NCBI GenBank assembly: GCA_030324005.1
Contig: JARDVH010000193.1
Location: forward strand, 48,629,444 to 48,693,443
Origin: Negaprion brevirostris
Lineage: Eukaryota
Direction of reading: 5' to 3'
DNA length: 64,000 nucleotides
Every line of letters starts with the position of its first letter. The stretch's first letter is position 1. Made by a program: the position numbers and the translations under genes. The notes under the pieces were generated by a model. It did no database searches. It was not told the origin of the DNA and worked only from the letters and a program-made list of their open reading frames with translations. Of the stretch, positions 1 through 62,227 are shown one piece after another.

Positions 1-124
1 CTCTCTTGCTCCCACCCACCCCCTTTCGTGAAAGTATGTTGTTACTTAGTTCAGGAAATAGTGGAAGAAAAAGCTAATGATTTTTTCAAATGCTTTGTCC
101 AAGTGTTTTGTTCTGACTCCACAG

Positions 125-237
125 AGGGGAATACATGGTCATATTATTGAGGCTCTGCAAGCAACAGCTGGGACTGAAAATGTTTCCATGACCACCGCTG
201 TCAGGAAGCAGCATGGAAAAGACGAATCATATCACAG
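125..237 (+). CDS. LDHD: LDHD coding exon 2 (113 nt), RGIHGHIIEALQATAGTENVSMTTAVRKQHGKDESYHR
   Basis: ccacag acceptor and gtaaga donor. Translation matches the LDHD N-terminal 'VREQHGRDES.H' motif. Phase joins exon 3. Confidence 0.93.
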
Positions 238-5472: not shown

Positions 5473-5798
5473 TCATAGAATCCCTACAGTGCAGAAGGAG
5501 GCCATTCGACCCATTGAGCCTGCACCTACAACAATCTCACCCAGACCATATCCCTATAACCCCACATATTTATCCCGCTAATACCTCTAACTTATGCATC
5601 CCGGAACACTAAGGGACAATTTAACATGGCCAATCAACCTAACCTGCACATCTTCGGGAGGAAAGCAGAGCACCTGGAGGAAACCCATGCAGACATGGGG
5701 AGAACATGCAGACTCGGCACAGACAGTGACTGGGAATCAAAGCCAGATCCCTGGAGCTGTGAGGCAGCAATGCTAACCACTGTGCCACCGTCTACCAC
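5473..5798 (-). mobile_element. HE1-like SINE, tail type A (CR1-derived ...tgcactgtagggattctatga)
   Basis: Full-length reverse copy of the window's dominant SINE. Confidence 0.88.
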
Positions 5799-8030: not shown

Positions 8031-8400
8031 ATGACTGAACTTGTCCTGGTTAACATGACTGAAGTTACCTTGGTTACCATGACTGAAGTTGCCCTGGTTA
8101 CTGTGATTCAACTTGTCCTGTTTACAGTTACTGAAGTTGCCCTGGTTACCGTGACTCAAGTTGCCCTAGTTACTGTCTTGCCCTGGTTACCATGACTGAA
8201 GTTACCCTAGTTACTGTCTTGCCCTGGTTACCGTGACGGAAGTTGCCCTGGTTACCGTGACGGAAGTTACCCTGGTTACCATGACAGAGGTTGCCCTGAT
8301 TACTGTTACTGAAGTTGCCCTGGTTACCGTGACCGAAGTTGCCCTGGTTACTGTCTTGCTCTGGATACCATGATTGATTTTGCTCTGGGTACTGTTACTG
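8031..8400. repeat. 24-bp minisatellite (GACTGAAGTTGCCCTGGTTACCAT) with shorter variant units
   Basis: Directly visible tandem units; they produce the SHGNQGNF repeats in ORF 7887..8159. Confidence 0.9.
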
Positions 8401-8994: not shown

Positions 8995-9305
8995 GGTTGG
9001 GTGGCACAGAGTTTAGCACTGCTGCCTTACAGCTCCGGGGACCTGGGTTCGAATCCCGGAGTTTGTCACATTCTCCCCTGTCTGTGTGGGTTTCCTCTGG
9101 GTGCTCCGGTTTCCTCCCACAGTCCAAAGATGTGGGGGTTATGTGCACTGGCCATACGAAATTGCCTGTTAGTGTCCCAGGATGCATAGGCTAGAGGGAT
9201 TAGTGGGGTAAATATGTGGGGTTTCAGGGATCGGGCCGAGGTGGGATTGTTGTCGGTGCAGACTCGATGGGCTGAATGGCCTGTTTCTGCATTGCAGAGT
9301 TTCTG
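8995..9305 (+). mobile_element. HE1-like SINE, tail type A
   Basis: B-box ggttcgaatccc plus shared core and tail. Confidence 0.85.
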
Positions 9306-9309
9306 TGGT

Positions 9310-11095: not shown

Positions 11096-11747
11096 AAAAA
11101 GACTAAACACTCACAGCAAGTGCAGGCTTGGCTGACAGTCGTGCATTGCTGATGGAATACCATACTGTTGGTGAGCAGCTACCTTTAGATTAGATGCTAA
11201 ACATAATGTCTTTCCTCTCAAAGGATATCACAGATTCCACAACACTGCTTAAAGAAAACTGGAAGAGCGCTCCCGGTTCTGAGCAATAGTTATCCCACAG
11301 CCAGAAGAGGTTATTGCTATCTCATTTGCAGAGCTATGGGAAAGAAGATGGAAGACTCAGCGTGGGCATAATGGGCTGAATGGCCTCCTTCTGTGCTATA
11401 TGATCTCATTACTGTGTCAACTGCAATATTTTCCTACTTCGTAATGGTGACTGCCGCTCAAAGAGCACTTCACCATCCAGGATTTGGGGCATTATGAGAT
11501 TGTAAAAGGCATGAATACAAGTTCTTCTTTAGAACGGACCATAGTACTATCTTTACACTGTGCAGTGACACAGGAGACTGACCAGGAATTAGACAGACAT
11601 TTCAAAATACACCCGACAGTTTGTACAAAATTACCAACAAATCACAGGTTAACTATTTTAAACCAGGACCCAACAAGCCAGCAATCAGCTTTTCATGGAC
11701 CTCAGGACATACCTGCTGATCTCAGAGGCTTAAAAGAAACAGAAAAT

Positions 11748-12064
11748 GGCATGGTGGCACAACGGTTGGCACTGTTGCCTCACAGCGCCAGGGACCCGGG
11801 TCCAGTTCTAGCCTTGGGTCACTGTCTGTGTGGAATTTGCACGTTCTCCCCATGTCTGCATTGGTTTCCTCTATATGCTCCAGTTTCCTCCCACATTCCA
11901 GTGATCTGCAGGTTAGGTTGATTGGCCATGTTAAATTGCCCCCGAGTGTCGGGGATTAGCAGTGTAAATATGTGGGGATTCAGGGATAGAGTCTGGGTGG
12001 GATTGTTGTTGGCGCAGGCTAAATGGGCTGAATAGCCTCTTTCTGCACCTTAGGGATTCTATGA
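11748..12064 (+). mobile_element. HE1-like SINE, tail type A
   Basis: Full head, core and tail. Confidence 0.88.
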
Positions 12065-17352: not shown

Positions 17353-17470
17353 TTCAGTGAAGGAGCAGTGCTCTGAAAGCACATGATTCCACATAAACCC
17401 ATTGGACTTTAACCTGCTGTGAGACTTCTTACTGTGCCCACCCCCGTCCAAGGCTGGCATCTCCACATCA
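17353..17470 (+). mobile_element. Penelope-like short element (family P1) with degenerate hammerhead motif
   Basis: aaggagcagtgctctgaaagc...ataaac...ggactttaacctg...gagacttcttactgtg...ggcatctccacatca, shared with five other loci. Confidence 0.75.
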
Positions 17471-19179
17471 TTTTTACATTGCATACTTTCACACTGATGT
17501 GAAGTGAGTTGCATTTAACAACGGTGCTAAAGTGCAGTGTAAATTCAGAGCCAGAACCCTTTGCAATGAGATTCCTGGAGACGTTAACCTTGTATCATTT
17601 TTTGCTGACACTCTGTGATGTGAAAATTAAGCACAGCATGAAGACTGTTGAGGGTTTTGTGGCCACCTTTTGAAATCTTCTTTATCTTAGATTCAAAGGA
17701 TAGAGAGTAGCAAGCTCTACGGATTTCAACTTCTAACGATTGGTGTGTGTAGTAAGGCAGGGATTTCTCATCAGCAAATACCAAATCTCCAGTAAAGCAA
17801 AGCTATGCGAAGAGAGTACAGTCAAGACGGCAGCTGACTGACTGCACTCAAATTGATAGCTGCAATGGAAACACATTCCCCATTATGGGGAGAGGGCGGG
17901 AGTGTGGAACTGAGCCACGACAGATCAGCCATGATCTTATTGAATGGCGGGGCAGGCNNNNNNNNNNNNNNNNNNNNNNNNNNNNNNNNNNNNNNNNNNN
18001 NNNNNNNNNNNNNNNNNNNNNNNNNNNNNNNNNNNNNNNNNNNNNNNNNNNNNNNNNTGATCTTATTGAATGGCGGGGCAGGCTCGAAGGGCTAGATGGC
18101 CTACTCCTGCTCCTATTTCTTATGTTCTTATCTCCCGATTGAAAGTATAACATGAATCATCCCTAATGTCCAAAAATCAAGCAAGGCTCTGGAATATTTA
18201 TCAACCTCCTCCTGGATCTCATCCAGCGACAATATCCTCCCCCTCCCAACTCTGACCCCAGTGCCCTGCCCCTCAAACTATTTAATCACCTCAGTCGACA
18301 GCTGTGCCCATAATCTCAAATTTGATTTCTAACCAAATATTTATTCAGATTGCTTCCGAAGAAGTTAACAGGCAGGGAATCTGCTCTTGACAAGAGTAAG
18401 CTAGCAAGAGAACGAGAGATGAGATCAGAAGAATGTTCTAAATGCAGGGAGTTTCACAAGGGCAGTAGAACAAGTTCAACAATAATTTCCAAAAGGGAAT
18501 TAAAACTTGAAGGTGAAACTTTGCAGGGCTATTGGGAAAGGGCAAGTGAGTGGCCCTAAATAGATGAATCTTCCCAAGATCCAGGAAGGTGTGATAGGTT
18601 GAATGGCCTGCTTATGCACAACACCATTCTGTCATTCATTGGAACATTAAGAAACTGTTAACTGAACAGTAAATGGAAGTGGAAGCAACCTATTAGTTTG
18701 GATTGAGATACAGACAGGAAGGAGAAAGGGTGTGATCTCAAATTGGCAGGGTGGATCTAGCGGGTTTCTCCGAGGGTCTGTAGTGGGGCTATAACATTTC
18801 ACTGCATAAATGGTACAGGTGAATTTATCAAATGCATTAGCCTCTTTACAGGGTTCAACATTCAGCTTCAGACTGGCAATGGTTGACTGACTAAATCACT
18901 GCTTCACAGCAGAGGATGAGGACACTATATCAAAGGTACAGGGAAACCAGGAGTGAATCAAGGGGCAGAGCTATCTAGATTCAGCCTTTTATTAATGGCA
19001 ATGGAGGAGCTGGTTAAAGGCCCTGAAAGTAGTAAGTCAGGAAATTGTCACTGGGTTAGTCAGCAACTCTCAAAAGGTGCTTCCTCAGATGTCACTCTGT
19101 TGATGAAGAAGGGTAGAGGAGACAAATTAGGAAAACGTATGTGTATTATTCTAACAAAATTAGAATTCATATGAAGAGA

Positions 19180-26196: not shown

Positions 26197-26513
26197 GGGT
26201 GGCATGGTGACATACTAGTTAGCATTGTTGCCTCATAGCGCCAGGGACCGGGGTTCGATTTCAGCCCTGGATGACTGTCCGTGTGGAGTTTGCTTGTTCT
26301 CCAGTGTTTGCATGGGTTTCCTCTGGGTACTCCAGTTTCCTCCCACAGTCCAAAGATGTACAGGTTAGATGGATTGGTCATGCTAAATTACCCCTTAGTG
26401 TCAGGGGGATTAGCAGCGTAGATGGTGAGTTTACAGAAATAGGGCCTGGGTGAGATTATTGTTGGTGCAAACTCAGGCCAAGTGGTCTCCTCCTGCACTG
26501 TCAGGATTCTATG
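26197..26513 (+). mobile_element. HE1-like SINE, tail type A
   Basis: Full head, core and tail. Confidence 0.87.
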
Positions 26514-26619
26514 AATAAAGAAAAATTACAGACTTTGATAAAATGTGATGTATTAGTTCATGACTTCTAGTCAATCTGCAAGCAGCAGTGTTGGAAACCA
26601 AATGTACAATGCCTGGTCA

Positions 26620-27235
26620 AACAAAGGACAAAGAAAATTACAGCACAGGAACAGGTCCTTTGCTCCTCCTAGCCTGCACTGACCAAGCTGCCTGACTGAA
26701 CTAAAACCCCTTCCTTTCTGGGGTCTATATCCCTCTATTCTCATCCTATTCATGTATTTATCCAGATGTCCCTTAAAACTCACTATGTTTCCACTAACTC
26801 CCAGCAGCGAGTTCTAGGCACCCACCACACTCTGTGTAAAAATAATTTGCCTCGTACATCTCTTTTAAAGCTTGCCCCTCGCAGCTTAAACTTATGGCCC
26901 CTAGTAATTGACTCTTCCACTCTGGGAAAAAGCTTCTGACTATCCATTCTGTCCATGCACCTCATAATCTTATAGACTTCTATCAGGTCGCTCCCTCAAC
27001 CACCATCGTTCCAGTGAGAACAAACCAAGTTTCTCCAACCTCTCCTCATAGCTAATGCCTTCCACGCCAAGCAACATCCTGGTAAATCTTTTCTGTACCC
27101 TCTGCAAAGCCTCCACATCCTTCTAGTAGTGTGGCGACCAGAATTGAACACTATATTCCAAGTGCGGCCTAACTAAGGTTCCATAAGACTACAACATGAC
27201 TTGTCAATTTTTAAACATATTGCCCCAGCTGATGA
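26620..27235 (-). mobile_element. Younger CR1 LINE 3' end with (ctttgttc)n-type tail
   Basis: ORFs 26571..26783 and 26783..26965 encode CR1 ORF2 C-terminal peptides (TRGHKFKLRG..FKRDVRG). Same family as 57040-58000. Confidence 0.88.
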
Positions 27236-29308: not shown

Positions 29309-29540
29309 CTATGATGTAGAGATGCCAGCGTTGAACTGGGGTAAACACAGTAAGTAGTCTCACAATACCAGATTAAAGTCCAACAGGTTTATTTGGTAGC
29401 ACAAGATTTCAGAGTGTCACTCCTTCTTCAGGTGAAGGCTCCTTCGTCAAACTCACCTGAAGAAGGAGCGACACTCCAAAAGTTTGTGCTACCAAATAAA
29501 CCTGTTGGACTTTAATCTGGTGTTGTGAGACTTCTTACTG
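29309..29540. mobile_element. Penelope-like P1 element arranged as an inverted dimer (89-bp arms) with TCTATAAAG target-site duplication
   Basis: Arms at 29347-29435 and 29453-29541. Direct repeats at 29300-29308 and 29541-29549. Confidence 0.85.
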
Positions 29541-29637
29541 TCTATAAAGTTAACCAGGGCTGACAAACTAGTCTTCACGCAGTCTGTTATTTCTGTTGGA
29601 TTGCCACCCTATCACTCTTGTCTTTGGTTCCCCACAG

Positions 29638-31744: not shown

Positions 31745-31882
31745 CGTAAGTAGTTTCACAACCCCAGGTTAAAGTCCAACAGGTTTATTTGGTAGCACGA
31801 GCTTTTGGAGCACCGCTCCTTCATCAGGTGAGTGCACCAGTTACTGTGCCTACCCCAGTCTAACACCGGCATCTCCACATCA
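31745..31882 (-). mobile_element. Penelope-like P1 element with 12-bp TSD TAACTCAATCAT and an inverted terminal piece
   Basis: Direct repeats at 31733-31744 and 31883-31894. Confidence 0.85.
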
Positions 31883-32518
31883 TAACTCAATCATTTTTAG
31901 CAATAATAAAAAACTTGCAATTCCATCAGGTTATCCAGCCGGCCCTTAAATTAATCAAAGCCTTTTGCCTCCTTCCCCTATTGTGAGCCCGTTTTAAAAA
32001 TATTTTTGTGTAAGAAGCCATTTCTAAATGAGTCTTTCACATTCTTTGAGCTATCCATCCTGTCCAACTATCATAACTAATTCTCCGGTACTAAAGATTG
32101 ATCTTTATCTGTACCATTTAGACATTTCCTTACAATAACAGCTTGCATTTACATAACATCTTAAGAGGTAGTAAAATAACTCGAGGCAACTCACAAAAAG
32201 GTTGCCAAAGAGCCTAAAGCGATCTGAGGATCGGTGACCTAAAGCTTGATCAAAGATGTGTGTTAAAGGAGCTAAGGCAGATTTAGAGAGGGAATTCCAC
32301 AGCTTAGGGCTGAGATAAGAGGAGGCACAGCAAGGTACAGATGGGGGCAATAAAAATCAGAATGAGTTAGAGGTCAGAGCTGGAAGAGTGTCGAGTTTTC
32401 CGAGTATTGTGACACTCAGCGTCAGCATCCTGGTTCTCTATACTGTCCAAAACAGGGCACAGCAATGAAGGTGATTAGAGCATTGTTTGTCACTCGATTC
32501 AATTAACAATATAAGTCA

Positions 32519-32666
32519 CAGTAAGAAGCCACACAACACTAGAATCACCTGATGAAGAAGCAGTGCTCCAAAAGTTCGTGATTCCAAATAAACCTGTTGT
32601 ACTTTAACCTGGTGTTGTGAGACTACTTGCTGTGCCCGCCCAAGTCCAATGTCAGCATCTCCACGT
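32519..32666 (+). mobile_element. Penelope-like P1 element with 12-bp TSD CAATATAAGTCA and a short inverted 5' piece
   Basis: Direct repeats at 32507-32518 and 32667-32678. Confidence 0.85.
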
Positions 32667-34104
32667 CAATATAAGTCAACACTCTATTCACTTTGTTTAT
32701 TGATAATGTGAGTGAGTGAGTTCACAATTAGCACTGATTCAATCGACACTGCAGATCTAATAATTAGAGTATATAGAACACCCATTGGCCTTTCTTATTT
32801 TGCAACACCATTAGTTTACTGATTAAATTTTATTTGCTACTGTTGGACCCATTTATGGATTGTATTCAACTTTTCACACTCAAGGTGCCCTCCCTCAGGC
32901 TGTCAGGCACTTTGCTGACCTCATGCTTAATTGTAATGCCCGATACTGTACATTCCCAGAGAATTTGTGTTCATCACTTCAAGCCTTCTTAGAAATCTCT
33001 GTTTCACTGATGTCAAAATTAGCACGTCTGCTCAGATTAACTCTGTTCATGTAGAGACGTAACATGCCCCTCCATCAAAGGAGAAGATCCAGTCAGACTC
33101 TCTGAATGCTGAAAGAAGGTTGAGTGGGTACACAACGAGACACCCCTCCTTTGATGCTGCAATACCTGATTTCCCAGAAGAGAAGAAAGTTGCATTTTTC
33201 ACAGTGTTTTCGGATGGGTTGAGCCATGATCTTGTTGTTGAGGTGGATTACTCCAGTTCAGCAATGGATACAATGTGGAAAATTACAGTATGTAAAAAGC
33301 AATCCCAAATGATCAAAGGTTGAACTTCACAGGATGATCTGTGCTTCAGTTGCCTAGAGCTGGGATTAAAATATTCACATGTTGCCAGTGATGCAAATTG
33401 TTGGGCTCTGCTACACGTATTTTCAGTGTAGATTTCCCCCAGAATGCCTACTGTATGAAATGTGCATTGTTGGCTGCAGTGTGCCCAAGTTTACTTGTTC
33501 CCTAAAGCTGACAGTGTGTCACAGGGATGTGTCCACATGTTGACGTGTGAAAGGAGATTGTGGCCTAGTGATTAGCAGATGCTATTAGCCTGCAGCAGCC
33601 TCAGTATTGTCCATTCTGATACTTGCTCAGAGTAGCTGTTTGATGTCCCCACAATATGAGCTGCAAATGTTCAGAGGAGCAGATCTTTCTGTCCTCTCTC
33701 CCACTCCCAGCAATAAGGGAAGTGAGTGCAACCTCTGTATACATAGATAGGAACTTCAGTTCTTGAAAAAGTTCCCCTCCACAGAATGTAAACCTTCCAA
33801 TCCCTATGAGTGGCATTGGGAGAATACAGCCACAATTCTGAGTCATTGGATGTGGGAGGAAATGCCGTTACAGCACTGTCCTGGCTTTAGTCCACAAACA
33901 CAGACACACTGACCAAGCCCCTAAAGCCACTACCAGTTGGCAAGGATGCAAATCCAAGGACACATTGGAAGGAAGGAAGAGGGGTGTTGAATATATTGAA
34001 CCAACTTAGTGGGCAGAAACCAAAGGAAATCTGGGAATGATGATAATGAACATGTCCTGTCATTGCAGGATATTGCAGAATAACAATGCTGAACTAGATC
34101 GCCA

Positions 34105-36173: not shown

Positions 36174-36295
36174 TGTTGAGATGCCAGCGTTGGGCTGGGG
36201 TCGACACAGTAAGAAGTCTCACAATACCAGGGTTAAAGTCCAACAGGTTTATTTGGAATGACGAGCTTTCAGAGCACTGTTCCTTCATCAGGTGA
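36174..36295 (-). mobile_element. Penelope-like P1 element with 11-bp TSD GTGTATTTTGA; best-preserved hammerhead core
   Basis: Direct repeats at 36163-36173 and 36296-36306. Minus strand reads tcac-CTGATGA-a-ggaac-agt-gctct-GAAA-GCTC-gtca. Confidence 0.85.
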
Positions 36296-36556
36296 GTGTA
36301 TTTTGAAGGTGAGGACTTGCTCATTGCTGGGCATGCAAAATATTTTTAATAGCTTCATTGCAACTTGTTGTCAAGGCTTACCTGGTCCAGCTGTGGAAGA
36401 AAGACTGCATTGGAACAAAAATGGTAGGAAATATTTTTCACAATAAAACAACTAAACTAAAAGAAGAGGTTCTGAGGTATTTTCAAAGATTTTGAAACAA
36501 AATGCTCGAGGGTTTCACCCACTGTCCCTATCCTTGCAACTGGCAAAGCAGTGTGT

Positions 36557-37995: not shown

Positions 37996-38292
37996 TCATC
38001 GAATCGCCACAATGCAGAAGGAGGTCATTCGGCCCATCTAGACCACATCCCTGCAACCTGACGTATTTACCCTACTCACCCCCCTGACACCAAGGAATAA
38101 TTTAGCATAGCCAATCAACCTAACCTGCATATCTTTGGCATGAGAAAGGAAACCGGAGCACGTGGAGGAAACCCATACAAACACTGGGAGAACATGCAGA
38201 GTCCACACAGACAGTGACTCAAGGCTGGAATTGAACTGGTGCCTTGGCACTGTGAGGCAGCAGTGCTAAGCACTGTACCACCTATGTCCTGC
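37996..38292 (-). mobile_element. HE1-like SINE, tail type A
   Basis: Family similarity. Confidence 0.85.
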
Positions 38293-54577: not shown

Positions 54578-54920
54578 GGACGGCACAGTAGCAGAGTGGT
54601 TAGTGCTGCTGCTTCACAGCTCCAGGGAATTGAGTTTGATTCCCGGCTCGCCGTCTGTGTGGAGTTTGCACGTTCTCCTCATGTCTGCATGGGTTTCCTC
54701 TGGTACTCTGGTTTTCTCCCACAGTCCAAAGATGTGGGGGTTAGGTTGATCGGCCCTGCTAAAAAATTGCCCCTTAGTGTCCTGAAGTGCTTAGGTTAGA
54801 GGGATTACTGGGTAAAATATGTAGGGATATAGGGGTAGGGCCTGGGTGGGATTGTGTTCGGTGCAGACTCAATGGGCCAAAGGCCTCTTCCTGCATTGTA
54901 GGGTTCTGTGATTCTATGAT
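54578..54920 (+). mobile_element. HE1-like SINE, tail type A
   Basis: Full head, core and tail. Confidence 0.87.
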
Positions 54921-56948: not shown

Positions 56949-57039
56949 TACCAATGCAGAATTAACCTTGCACAAGTGGAAGTCACATTGAAATATAAAA
57001 AAAGCATCAGTTTCTCACGTTTAATTTTCCCCGCTCTCA

Positions 57040-58000
57040 CAAAGAACAAAGAAAATTACAGCACAGGAACAGGCTCTTCAGCCCTCTAAGGCTGCACTGA
57101 CCATGCTGCCCGACTGAACTAAAACCCCCTACCCTTCCGGGGTCCATATCCCTCTATTCCCATCCTAGTCATGTATTTGTCAAGGTGCCCCTTAAAAAAA
57201 TCACTTCCGTATCTGCTTCCACTACCTTCCCCAGCAACAAGTTCCAGACACCCACTACTCTGTAAAAAACATCTGCCTCATACATGTCCTTTAAGTCTTG
57301 TTAGCACCTTAAACCTATGCCCCCTAGTAATTGACTCTTACACCCTGGGAAAAAACTTCTGACTATTCACTCCGTCCATGCCTCTCAATCTTGTAGGCTT
57401 TCATCAGGTCTCCCCTCAACCTCCATCGCTCAACTGAGAGCAAACCAAGTTTCTCCAACCTCTCCTCATAGTTAATACCCTCCATACCATGCAACATCCT
57501 GGTAAATCTTTTCTGTACCCTCTCCTTCTGGTAGTGCGATGACCAGAATTAAACATTATATTCCAAATGCGGCCTAAGGTTCTATAAAGCTGCAACATGA
57601 CATGCCAATGCCCCGACCAATGGAGGCAAGCATGCCGTATGCCTTCTTGACTATCTTCTCCACCTGCAATGCCACTTTCAATGACCTGCGTACCTGTACA
57701 CCCCAGATCCCTTTGCCTATCAATACTCTTAAGGGTTCTGCCATTTACTGTATATTTACTACCTCTATTAGACCTTCCAAAATGCATTATCTCACATTTA
57801 TCCGGATTAAACTCCATCCGCAATCTCTCCGCAAAATCTCCAACTGGTCTATATCCTGCTGTATCCTCTGATGGTCCTTATCGCTATCCGCAAATCCACT
57901 CATCTTGGTGTCGTCCGCAAACTTACCAATCAATCCAGTTACATTTTCCTCCAAATCATTTATATATATATATTACAAACAGCAAAGGTCCCAGCACTGA
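57040..58000 (-). mobile_element. CR1 LINE 3' ~1 kb (RT C-terminal half to tail)
   Basis: MEFNPDKCEIMHFGRSN peptide and reverse-strand KFADDTK motif; nearly colinear with 26620-27235. Confidence 0.9.
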
Positions 58001-60240: not shown

Positions 60241-60972
60241 ATTCCCTCCTCCGCAGAAGTTTTACCTAATGCACAATGAAAGCATGGCACTTTAGGACAC
60301 TCTACACAGGGCTTGCTTTAAACTAACATAGTATCAAGTGAATCTAAGCTTTCAGACTTTTGGTCTGAGTCTTTAGCTATTTTACTGTCCTATATACAAC
60401 TGAAATCACAGCATCTTTCTGCAACCTTACACAGGATTCAAGCAATCTGACCAAATCTTGCTTTGTTTTTGGCTTAAAAGTAAAATGCATCTGATATGGG
60501 AACTATTGTTCAAGGGACACTTCATTACCTTACAAAACTTTCTCTACCTGAGGCTAAATGAATCCAAAAATTCATTCTCCCACAGGCTCTGCCTTGCACG
60601 GAGCACCCTCCACCCATCACACCAGCTGAGGTATCAGTCATTAAACACGATTGCAATCAGCGAACACCCACAGGACATATTTAAATATACTCAAATTGGT
60701 CATATACAAAATTATCGCTGGGAATTCGGAAGATTATCATATTTGTTCTAGTTATTATTGTAACTGGGAAACAAAATCTGTCACAAATCTGTGAAGTGTT
60801 ATGATCCCAGCTGCTGTTGATACTGGGAAAGACAGATCTCAGAGTGAAACCTGGTTTGATAGATCCTAACTTTTTGTTTAGATAGAAATGCAGAGTTACT
60901 GAACAAATTCAGAGGAGTATGCTGATGAACTTTTAATACAAAGAATAAAACATAGAATCTATGCCATCTTTT

Positions 60973-61281
60973 CATGGAATCCTACAGCATGGGAGGCCAT
61001 TCCACCCATCAAGTCTGCACCAACCACAATACCACTCAGGCCCTATTCCCATAACCCCATGCATTTACCCTAGCTGGTCCTTCTGACACTAAGGGGCAAC
61101 TTAGCATGGCCAGTCCATCTAACCTGCACAGCTTTGGACTGTGGGAGGAAACCGGAGCATCCAGGGAAAATCCATGCAGACACAGGGAGAATGTGCAAAC
61201 TCCACACAGACAATGACCCAAGGTGGAAATCGAATCCAGGTCCCCTTGTGCAGTGAGGCAGCAGTGCTAACCACTGTGCCA
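60973..61281 (-). mobile_element. HE1-like SINE, tail type A
   Basis: Family similarity. Confidence 0.87.
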
Positions 61282-62137: not shown

Positions 62138-62227
62138 GCGAAGGGGCAGCCAGCACTCTGAAAGCTAGTGGCTTTTGCTACCAAATAAACCTGTTGGACT
62201 TTAACCTGGTGTTGTGAGACTTCTTAC
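62138..62227 (+). mobile_element. Penelope-like P1 element running into a gap
   Basis: ctctgaaagctagtggcttttgctaccaaataaacctgttggactttaacctggtgttgtgagacttcttac. Confidence 0.78.

Follow-up and report, generated by a model that had tools for sequence, protein, structure and literature searches.

The locus lies in a 64,000-nucleotide stretch of the Negaprion brevirostris genome, called the window in the following. Positions 32507..32678 hold a short two-armed insertion derived from the pseudo-LTR (pLTR) of a Penelope-like element (PLE) and enclosed by a target-site duplication (TSD). Coordinates within the element are counted from C3 of the hammerhead core, which is position 0 and corresponds to window position 32549 in this copy. 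Ribozyme residues are numbered by the established hammerhead convention. The insertion is composed of the following features:

32507..32518 and 32667..32678: left and right TSD of locus 32519, 12 bp, identical
32519..32542, minus strand: short inverted arm, 24 bp, element about +60 to +83, stopping at the "short" 3' site
32545..32668, plus strand: sense arm, distal pLTR from -4 to +119, 124 bp, stopping at the "long" 3' site
32545..32581, plus strand: decayed minimal hammerhead with stem I (32545-48/32578-81), CUGAUGA (32549-55), extra A (32556), stem II (32557-69), GAAA box (32570-73, G12>A) and predicted cut after 32577
32587..32592, plus strand: AATAAA, putative poly(A) signal of the pLTR, conserved across copies
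32633..32668, plus strand: PLE "tail", about 36 nt, between both 3' end sites

The 3' end of the sense arm consists of the bases that precede the ATG of the ORF in full copies. The hammerhead has lost the catalytic G12 and in addition carries C16.2>U and one stem II mismatch; given established hammerhead chemistry, these three lesions lead us to predict that this copy is inactive.

The original prediction listed six loci sharing this unit, four of them with TSDs of 9–12 bp. All six are present, a blastn search detected no further copies of the unit in the window, and direct repeats border four of the loci. Locus 29309 had been described as two-armed, which is correct, but it is not the only one: 32519 and 31745 are two-armed as well, making three of six. 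Apart from the copy described above, the loci are:

17358..17471, plus strand: solo arm of locus 17353, +4 to +120, core start absent, no clear TSD
29309..29541, both strands: head-to-head insertion with minus arm 29309-29435 (-4 to about +122) and plus arm 29451-29541 (-6 to +84); 9-bp TSD at 29300-29308/29541-29549
31746..31883, both strands: two-armed insertion of locus 31745 with minus arm 31746-31834 (-7 to +81) and plus-strand tail piece 31841-31883 (+78 to +120); 12-bp TSD at 31733-31744/31883-31894, partly microhomology with the element end
36174..36298, minus strand: solo arm, -7 to +119; 11-bp TSD at 36163-36173/36296-36306, with 3 bp in common with the element
62138..62227, plus strand: arm of another subfamily, 7 nt longer past the cut site, core start absent, abutting an N gap

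The 15-bp spacer of the head-to-head insertion is an inverted scrap of the hammerhead core. Only the arm at 36174..36298 keeps all core bases, with mismatches in stems I and II. Loci 17353 and 62138 are without the CUGA of the core and have no TSD of at least 9 bp.

Other repeats were noticed in the window. Another dispersed repeat, about 300 bp long and present in more than 15 pieces that are 70-80% alike, looks SINE-like (420-725, 2540-2824, 5473-5791, 9001-9307, 11747-12064, 26200-26514, 38033-38282, 54585-54911, 60971-61281). Two longer repeats (26621-27208 and 57039-57877) are related to each other with 80% identity over 600 bp; the reading frame remnant at 57419-57877 we take to be LINE-like. 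A degenerate tandem repeat is located at 8040-8398.

As predicted, the consensus of the unit is a minimal type I hammerhead with CUGANGA, an extra base, the G10.1-C11.1 pair, GAAA, a palindromic AGCU, H17 and a short helix I. The proposed decay of a CpG in the box is borne out as well: the seven arms in the window comprise 4 CTGAAA, 3 CCAAAA and no CCGAAA. Across the genome, 161 of the 302 arms found could be parsed, a set that includes similarity-selected loci, and their boxes read CGAAA (63), TGAAA (54), CAAAA (42) or GGAAA (2); judged by these sequences, the variants are products of CpG decay from CCGAAA. For loop II we revise the proposed AGT, since AGC is more likely ancestral (C 70, T 57, at a CpG). 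All core bases are intact in 69 of the 161 arms, and both stems are intact too in 26. Subfamilies differ mostly at sites that the motif tolerates, namely N7, H17 (C, A, U), loop II and the sequence past stem I. Helix II pair 4 changes from G-C to A-U, with A opposite 13 of 15 U (p = 1e-7) and no association in four control columns, and pair 3 shows a swap from A-U to G-C (p = 0.002). This compensation is seen at the subfamily level and reflects few independent events, and at pair 4 A-C mismatches and A-U pairs are equally frequent (21 each). We propose that the hammerhead was under selection in master elements and that inserted stumps decay neutrally.

An Rfam search, intended as a check of the motif, returned no hammerhead family at E≤10, and single arms folded no better than their shuffles (z from -1.8 to +1.4). 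Both results are what one expects of a motif that lacks helix III. Rfam miRNA models match window positions 29365-29522 with E 5e-9, far under the gathering score and on account of the fold-back only; the head-to-head insertion there forms a long hairpin which could give rise to small RNAs or be miscalled as a miRNA. Cleavage by a hammerhead of this design would need a dimer or the protein of the element.

We assessed how frequent the unit is in the genome. There are 6,918 occurrences of an exact 38-mer of it and 1,069 of a 35-nt pattern for an intact hammerhead; the controls (the reversed sequence in the case of the 38-mer) gave 0, and the unit is therefore not a product of chance. A sample of 85 stretches of 10 kb at even spacing, 686 kb once N is discounted, gave 47 insertions, 39 of which contain the unit. 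Extrapolated from this sample, the genome holds about 1.2-1.5e5 copies. Their median identity to the majority sequence is 87%. In public runs coded as at least 6 organisms, 31-52% of the element's words are present, and in three of these runs 46,000-89,000 contigs match the pLTR. The unit is also found in contigs of two public runs guessed to be RNA, a presence that cannot show transcription.

Extension of the copies beyond the unit confirmed that it originates from a Penelope pLTR, more precisely from the distal pLTR of an element encoding reverse transcriptase (RT) and a GIY-YIG endonuclease (EN). Long copies of this kind had been proposed as a check; they exist, and the unit is colinear with them. 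Upstream lie about 210 bp of UTR, preceded by an ORF end that encodes a GIY-YIG-type motif, and downstream the ATG of the next ORF follows directly, at +119. On one contig (L111) ORF end, UTR, unit, ATG and RT occur in one piece, a partial tandem of the pLTR: residues 810-880 of an 881-aa homologue (P0002) align before the unit and residues 1-543 after it. The order RT, EN, UTR, unit was found in 10 of 30 RT-selected loci. In Pfam searches RVT_1 scored over the cut-off and GIY-YIG under it (E 0.003); the GIY-YIG region also aligned to the domain of a homologue. In short broken pieces Pfam missed GIY-YIG, and a PDB sequence search with the RT piece gave no match. Nearly all of the 111 homologues (best 58%) are annotated with RVT_1 and many with GIY-YIG. 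The genome contains 5,317 RT candidates, and all 150 that were scored match. Every copy seen is broken: the longest stop-free stretch among 30 loci of this gappy assembly is 435 aa and no ORF was intact. A CX4CXXC linker between RT and EN is present in 7 of 11 loci scanned. Such a linker (CX2-5CxxC) is described for Neptune and Nematis and as absent in Penelope/Poseidon (PMC8557442). The host element is thus likely of the Neptune type, an assignment that rests on motifs and with a linker that Nematis also fits.

Insertion anatomy was analysed on one contig (C1), where the first 100 occurrences of the 38-mer were taken, unselected for either end. The 3' ends are bimodal: among 94 scorable ends 57 lie at +81..90, 35 at +111..128, none between and 2 further out. 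The two sites are 36 nt apart and delimit the tail, within the published 30-40 bp. An inverted arm accompanies 53 of the 100 copies, and the two arms of a pair differ in class, one short and one long, in 36 of the 40 pairs that could be classified; this strict pairing supports priming on two strands at two RNA sites. Exact TSDs of 9-14 bp flank 21 of 74 gap-free loci in comparison to 0 of 70 controls, in agreement with the earlier view that the copies were inserted independently of each other. By analogy, the 3' sites and the paired arms fit the two-strand cutting and extension from two internal RNA starts described in vitro for an Anolis element (PMC11167929). Transferred from that description, the RT-EN protein would bind the RNA near the start of the ORF and cut AT-rich DNA on both strands, with 9-14 bp between the cuts; each cut strand would prime at its own internal site of the RNA (+84 or +120), yielding head-to-head arms and a tail.

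In a separate set of 30 copies containing the ORF start (L031-L060), 13 leave the ORF at nt 66-80 and several of them rejoin the unit at -4..-7. This cluster is possibly a third RT start site; it may also be a selection artefact, because the query ended near nt 68.

Taken with the parent element, the six loci are very probably 5'-truncated, often two-armed pLTR insertions of a protein-coding Penelope-like retrotransposon (likely Neptune type), each likely made afresh from RNA of the full element and not from another short copy. Short copies exceed those reaching the ORF by 36 to 11 among the 47 unselected insertions. For the 5' ends, 13 of the 100 arms on C1 were left out because of an N gap at the end point. 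For the remaining 87, 32 ends lie at -8..0, 30 downstream and 25 upstream, 11 of the latter beyond -60. The ends spread continuously from +44 to beyond -60 and into the ORF. Per nucleotide, the rate is 0.062 at -8..0, 0.027 at -17..-9 and 0.006-0.014 in six other bins; at least one of the 32 hot-spot ends (L233) is a mis-call. The predicted cut site shows no excess: 8 of 87 ends are located at +24..+30 (0.014 per nt), two of which are internal deletions. Among joints listed from other public runs, 7 of 15 are at -8..-6. A small second cluster was noticed at -17..-15 (L266, L298, L305, L307, L311). An intron whose 3' boundary is helix I, the arrangement in D. virilis, was considered and rejected, as there is no AG at the hot spot. 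Our literature search returned no report of a 5' hot spot at the start of a PLE hammerhead.

Of 81 long copies, 51 have a TATA-like motif at -39..-32, about 30 nt upstream of the hot spot. This box of the full pLTRs lies upstream of the short unit and is hence absent from it. An extra G stands before A(-6) at 11 of the 19 junctions when all loci are considered (p = 0.005) and at 5 of 9 unselected ones (p = 0.08); its cap-like appearance is suggestive only. Internal promoters have been demonstrated for D. virilis Penelope (PMC2377424), and a TATA box with an Inr-like TCACT has been noted in an Adineta pLTR (PMC3846280). From the arrangement of these elements we lean slightly towards a model in which transcription would start at -8 to -2, about 30 nt below the TATA-like box, and priming on the 5' pLTR would run off the RNA end after 90-127 nt. 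We propose that short units dominate and start at the ribozyme because the RT runs off the 5' end of the RNA.

A further step, which we put forward tentatively and with somewhat more doubt than assent, is that the stumps are run-off ("strong-stop-like") cDNAs. PLE RNA would then start at the first bases of the hammerhead and the RT would leave from a capped end, so that about 1e5 stumps would map the start site and show an uncleaved template; the ribozyme, which would occupy the first 35 nt of the mRNA, would serve as a decapping switch and not in the production of the insertion template. That the 5' ends cluster at the hot spot, and not at the cut site, bears on what the PLE hammerhead does.

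The hot spot might instead mark a place where the RT stops or switches template at the base of a folded or protein-bound hammerhead, without any relation to a transcription start. It does coincide with the 5' strand of stem I, and many hot-spot junctions are template switches to inverted scraps. However, the RT would reach the 3' side of the structure (+32, +21) first, where no excess is seen, and the TATA-like box at the canonical distance and the excess of G before A(-6) also speak against it. We regard such a stop as less likely than run-off.

The original prediction of a separate non-autonomous, retrozyme-like family was not upheld: the unit is colinear with RT-EN copies, its 5' ends form a continuum into the ORF, it has no TATA-like box and tandem arrays were not found. 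In a SINE-like version of this idea, read-through transcription of short pLTR units would supply RNA that the PLE protein mobilises again in trans. A fixed 5' end would likewise be expected from a short non-autonomous master, the hot spot together with the two fixed 3' ends does define a recurring unit of 90-127 bp, short copies prevail in number as given above, and cis-acting pLTRs are reported to suffice for trans mobilisation in Adineta (PMC3846280). Yet the 5' ends are scattered over -8..0 and continue beyond -60, junctions vary between loci, and the hot spot recurs in several subfamilies that also have long copies. Furthermore, the stumps contain neither the TATA-like box nor the ORF-start RNA that the Anolis protein is described to require (first 172 nt of the ORF, PMC11167929). 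We consider this scenario improbable as a general source of the copies; a minor non-autonomous source may exist alongside truncation.

Spread as a non-LTR retrozyme, with tandem hammerhead units that self-cleave, circularise and move via circular RNA, is very improbable: in its favour there are a rare direct dimer in L021 with two cores 197 bp apart, connected via about 74 nt of ORF start, a similar joint in two other public runs and the report of retrozymes in one chondrichthyan genome (bioRxiv 2026.07.22.740005), against it that 0 of 183 unselected arms belong to a same-strand two-core pair within 1 kb (a gappy short-read assembly may collapse arrays), that the hammerhead is minimal instead of canonical, with no helix III and no Rfam match, and that copies begin ahead of the core and not at the cut site, with no excess of 5' ends at +29. 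Same-strand two-core pairs occurred only in similarity-selected loci (L021, L030). Direct dimers with two cores 185-197 bp apart were observed at L021:1501-1816 and as joints 2263/2264>2079 in runs X6 and X4; a retrozyme could develop from structures like these. The present copies resemble non-LTR retrozymes in being short, non-coding, pLTR-related and dispersed as monomers with a type I hammerhead (Cervera and de la Pena 2020, PMC7229834; Li et al., bioRxiv 10.64898/2026.07.22.740005). Because retrozymes are defined there by tandem hammerhead units, and in the 2020 paper also by canonical motifs and circular RNA, these copies fall outside the definition.

Truncated PLE insertions of this kind are ordinary: minimal hammerheads (min-HHRs) in PLE pLTRs, their genome-wide solo copies (2014) and the layout of PLE insertions are all known already. 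Thousands of solo copies in vertebrates have been ascribed to truncated PLEs, and min-HHRs are reported for fish Xena/Poseidon/Neptune, coelacanth and Xenopus (PMC4209133). The shark unit shares with the motif as described there the 4-bp helix I, the extra base between 9 and 10.1, G10.1-C11.1, the palindromic 15.2/16.2, the pLTR location and opposite-strand pairs 100-700 bp apart. Helix II comprises 5 bp here in contrast to 7-8 bp in Schistosoma, and the passages of that paper considered here do not name the present family and give no 5' end statistics. Like EN+ PLEs of the Neptune clade (Craig et al. 2021, PMC8557442; Arkhipova et al. 2013, PMC3846280), the parent element has the RT followed by a C-terminal GIY-YIG and the CX2-5CxxC linker, and its copies form partial tandems with an inverted 5'-truncated arm, a tail of 30-40 bp at one end and TSDs that in the published accounts measure 8-10 bp. 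Stumps of about 100 bp make up a very high proportion of its copies, which sets it apart from the elements described there, and its placement with Neptune is by motif, not by phylogeny. Poseidon of Anolis carolinensis (PAc; Frangieh et al. 2024, PMC11167929) likewise has two internal RT start sites bounding the tail, with both strands of AT-rich targets cut and extended. Its hammerhead is described as dispensable for insertion and uncleaved RNA as the main template. In PAc the ORF starts within the hammerhead and RT starts are located 111-118 nt into the ORF, whereas here the ATG is 119 nt past C3 and copies end at the ATG and 36 nt before it. Our search found no literature on this Penelope-like hammerhead family in sharks; the family may be catalogued in Repbase/Dfam or in the tables of bioRxiv 2026.07.22.740005.

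Stumps as abundant as these constitute a fossil record of PLE transposition in vivo, and repeat annotation may mistake them for SINEs, MITEs or miRNA hairpins. Finally, we noticed that the antisense of stem I and core (-6..+3; e.g. window 36289-36297 and 31825-31833 on the plus strand) reads CAG/GTGAGT, the consensus of a 5' splice donor. Present in about 1e5 copies, this sequence could seed cryptic exons in host introns.
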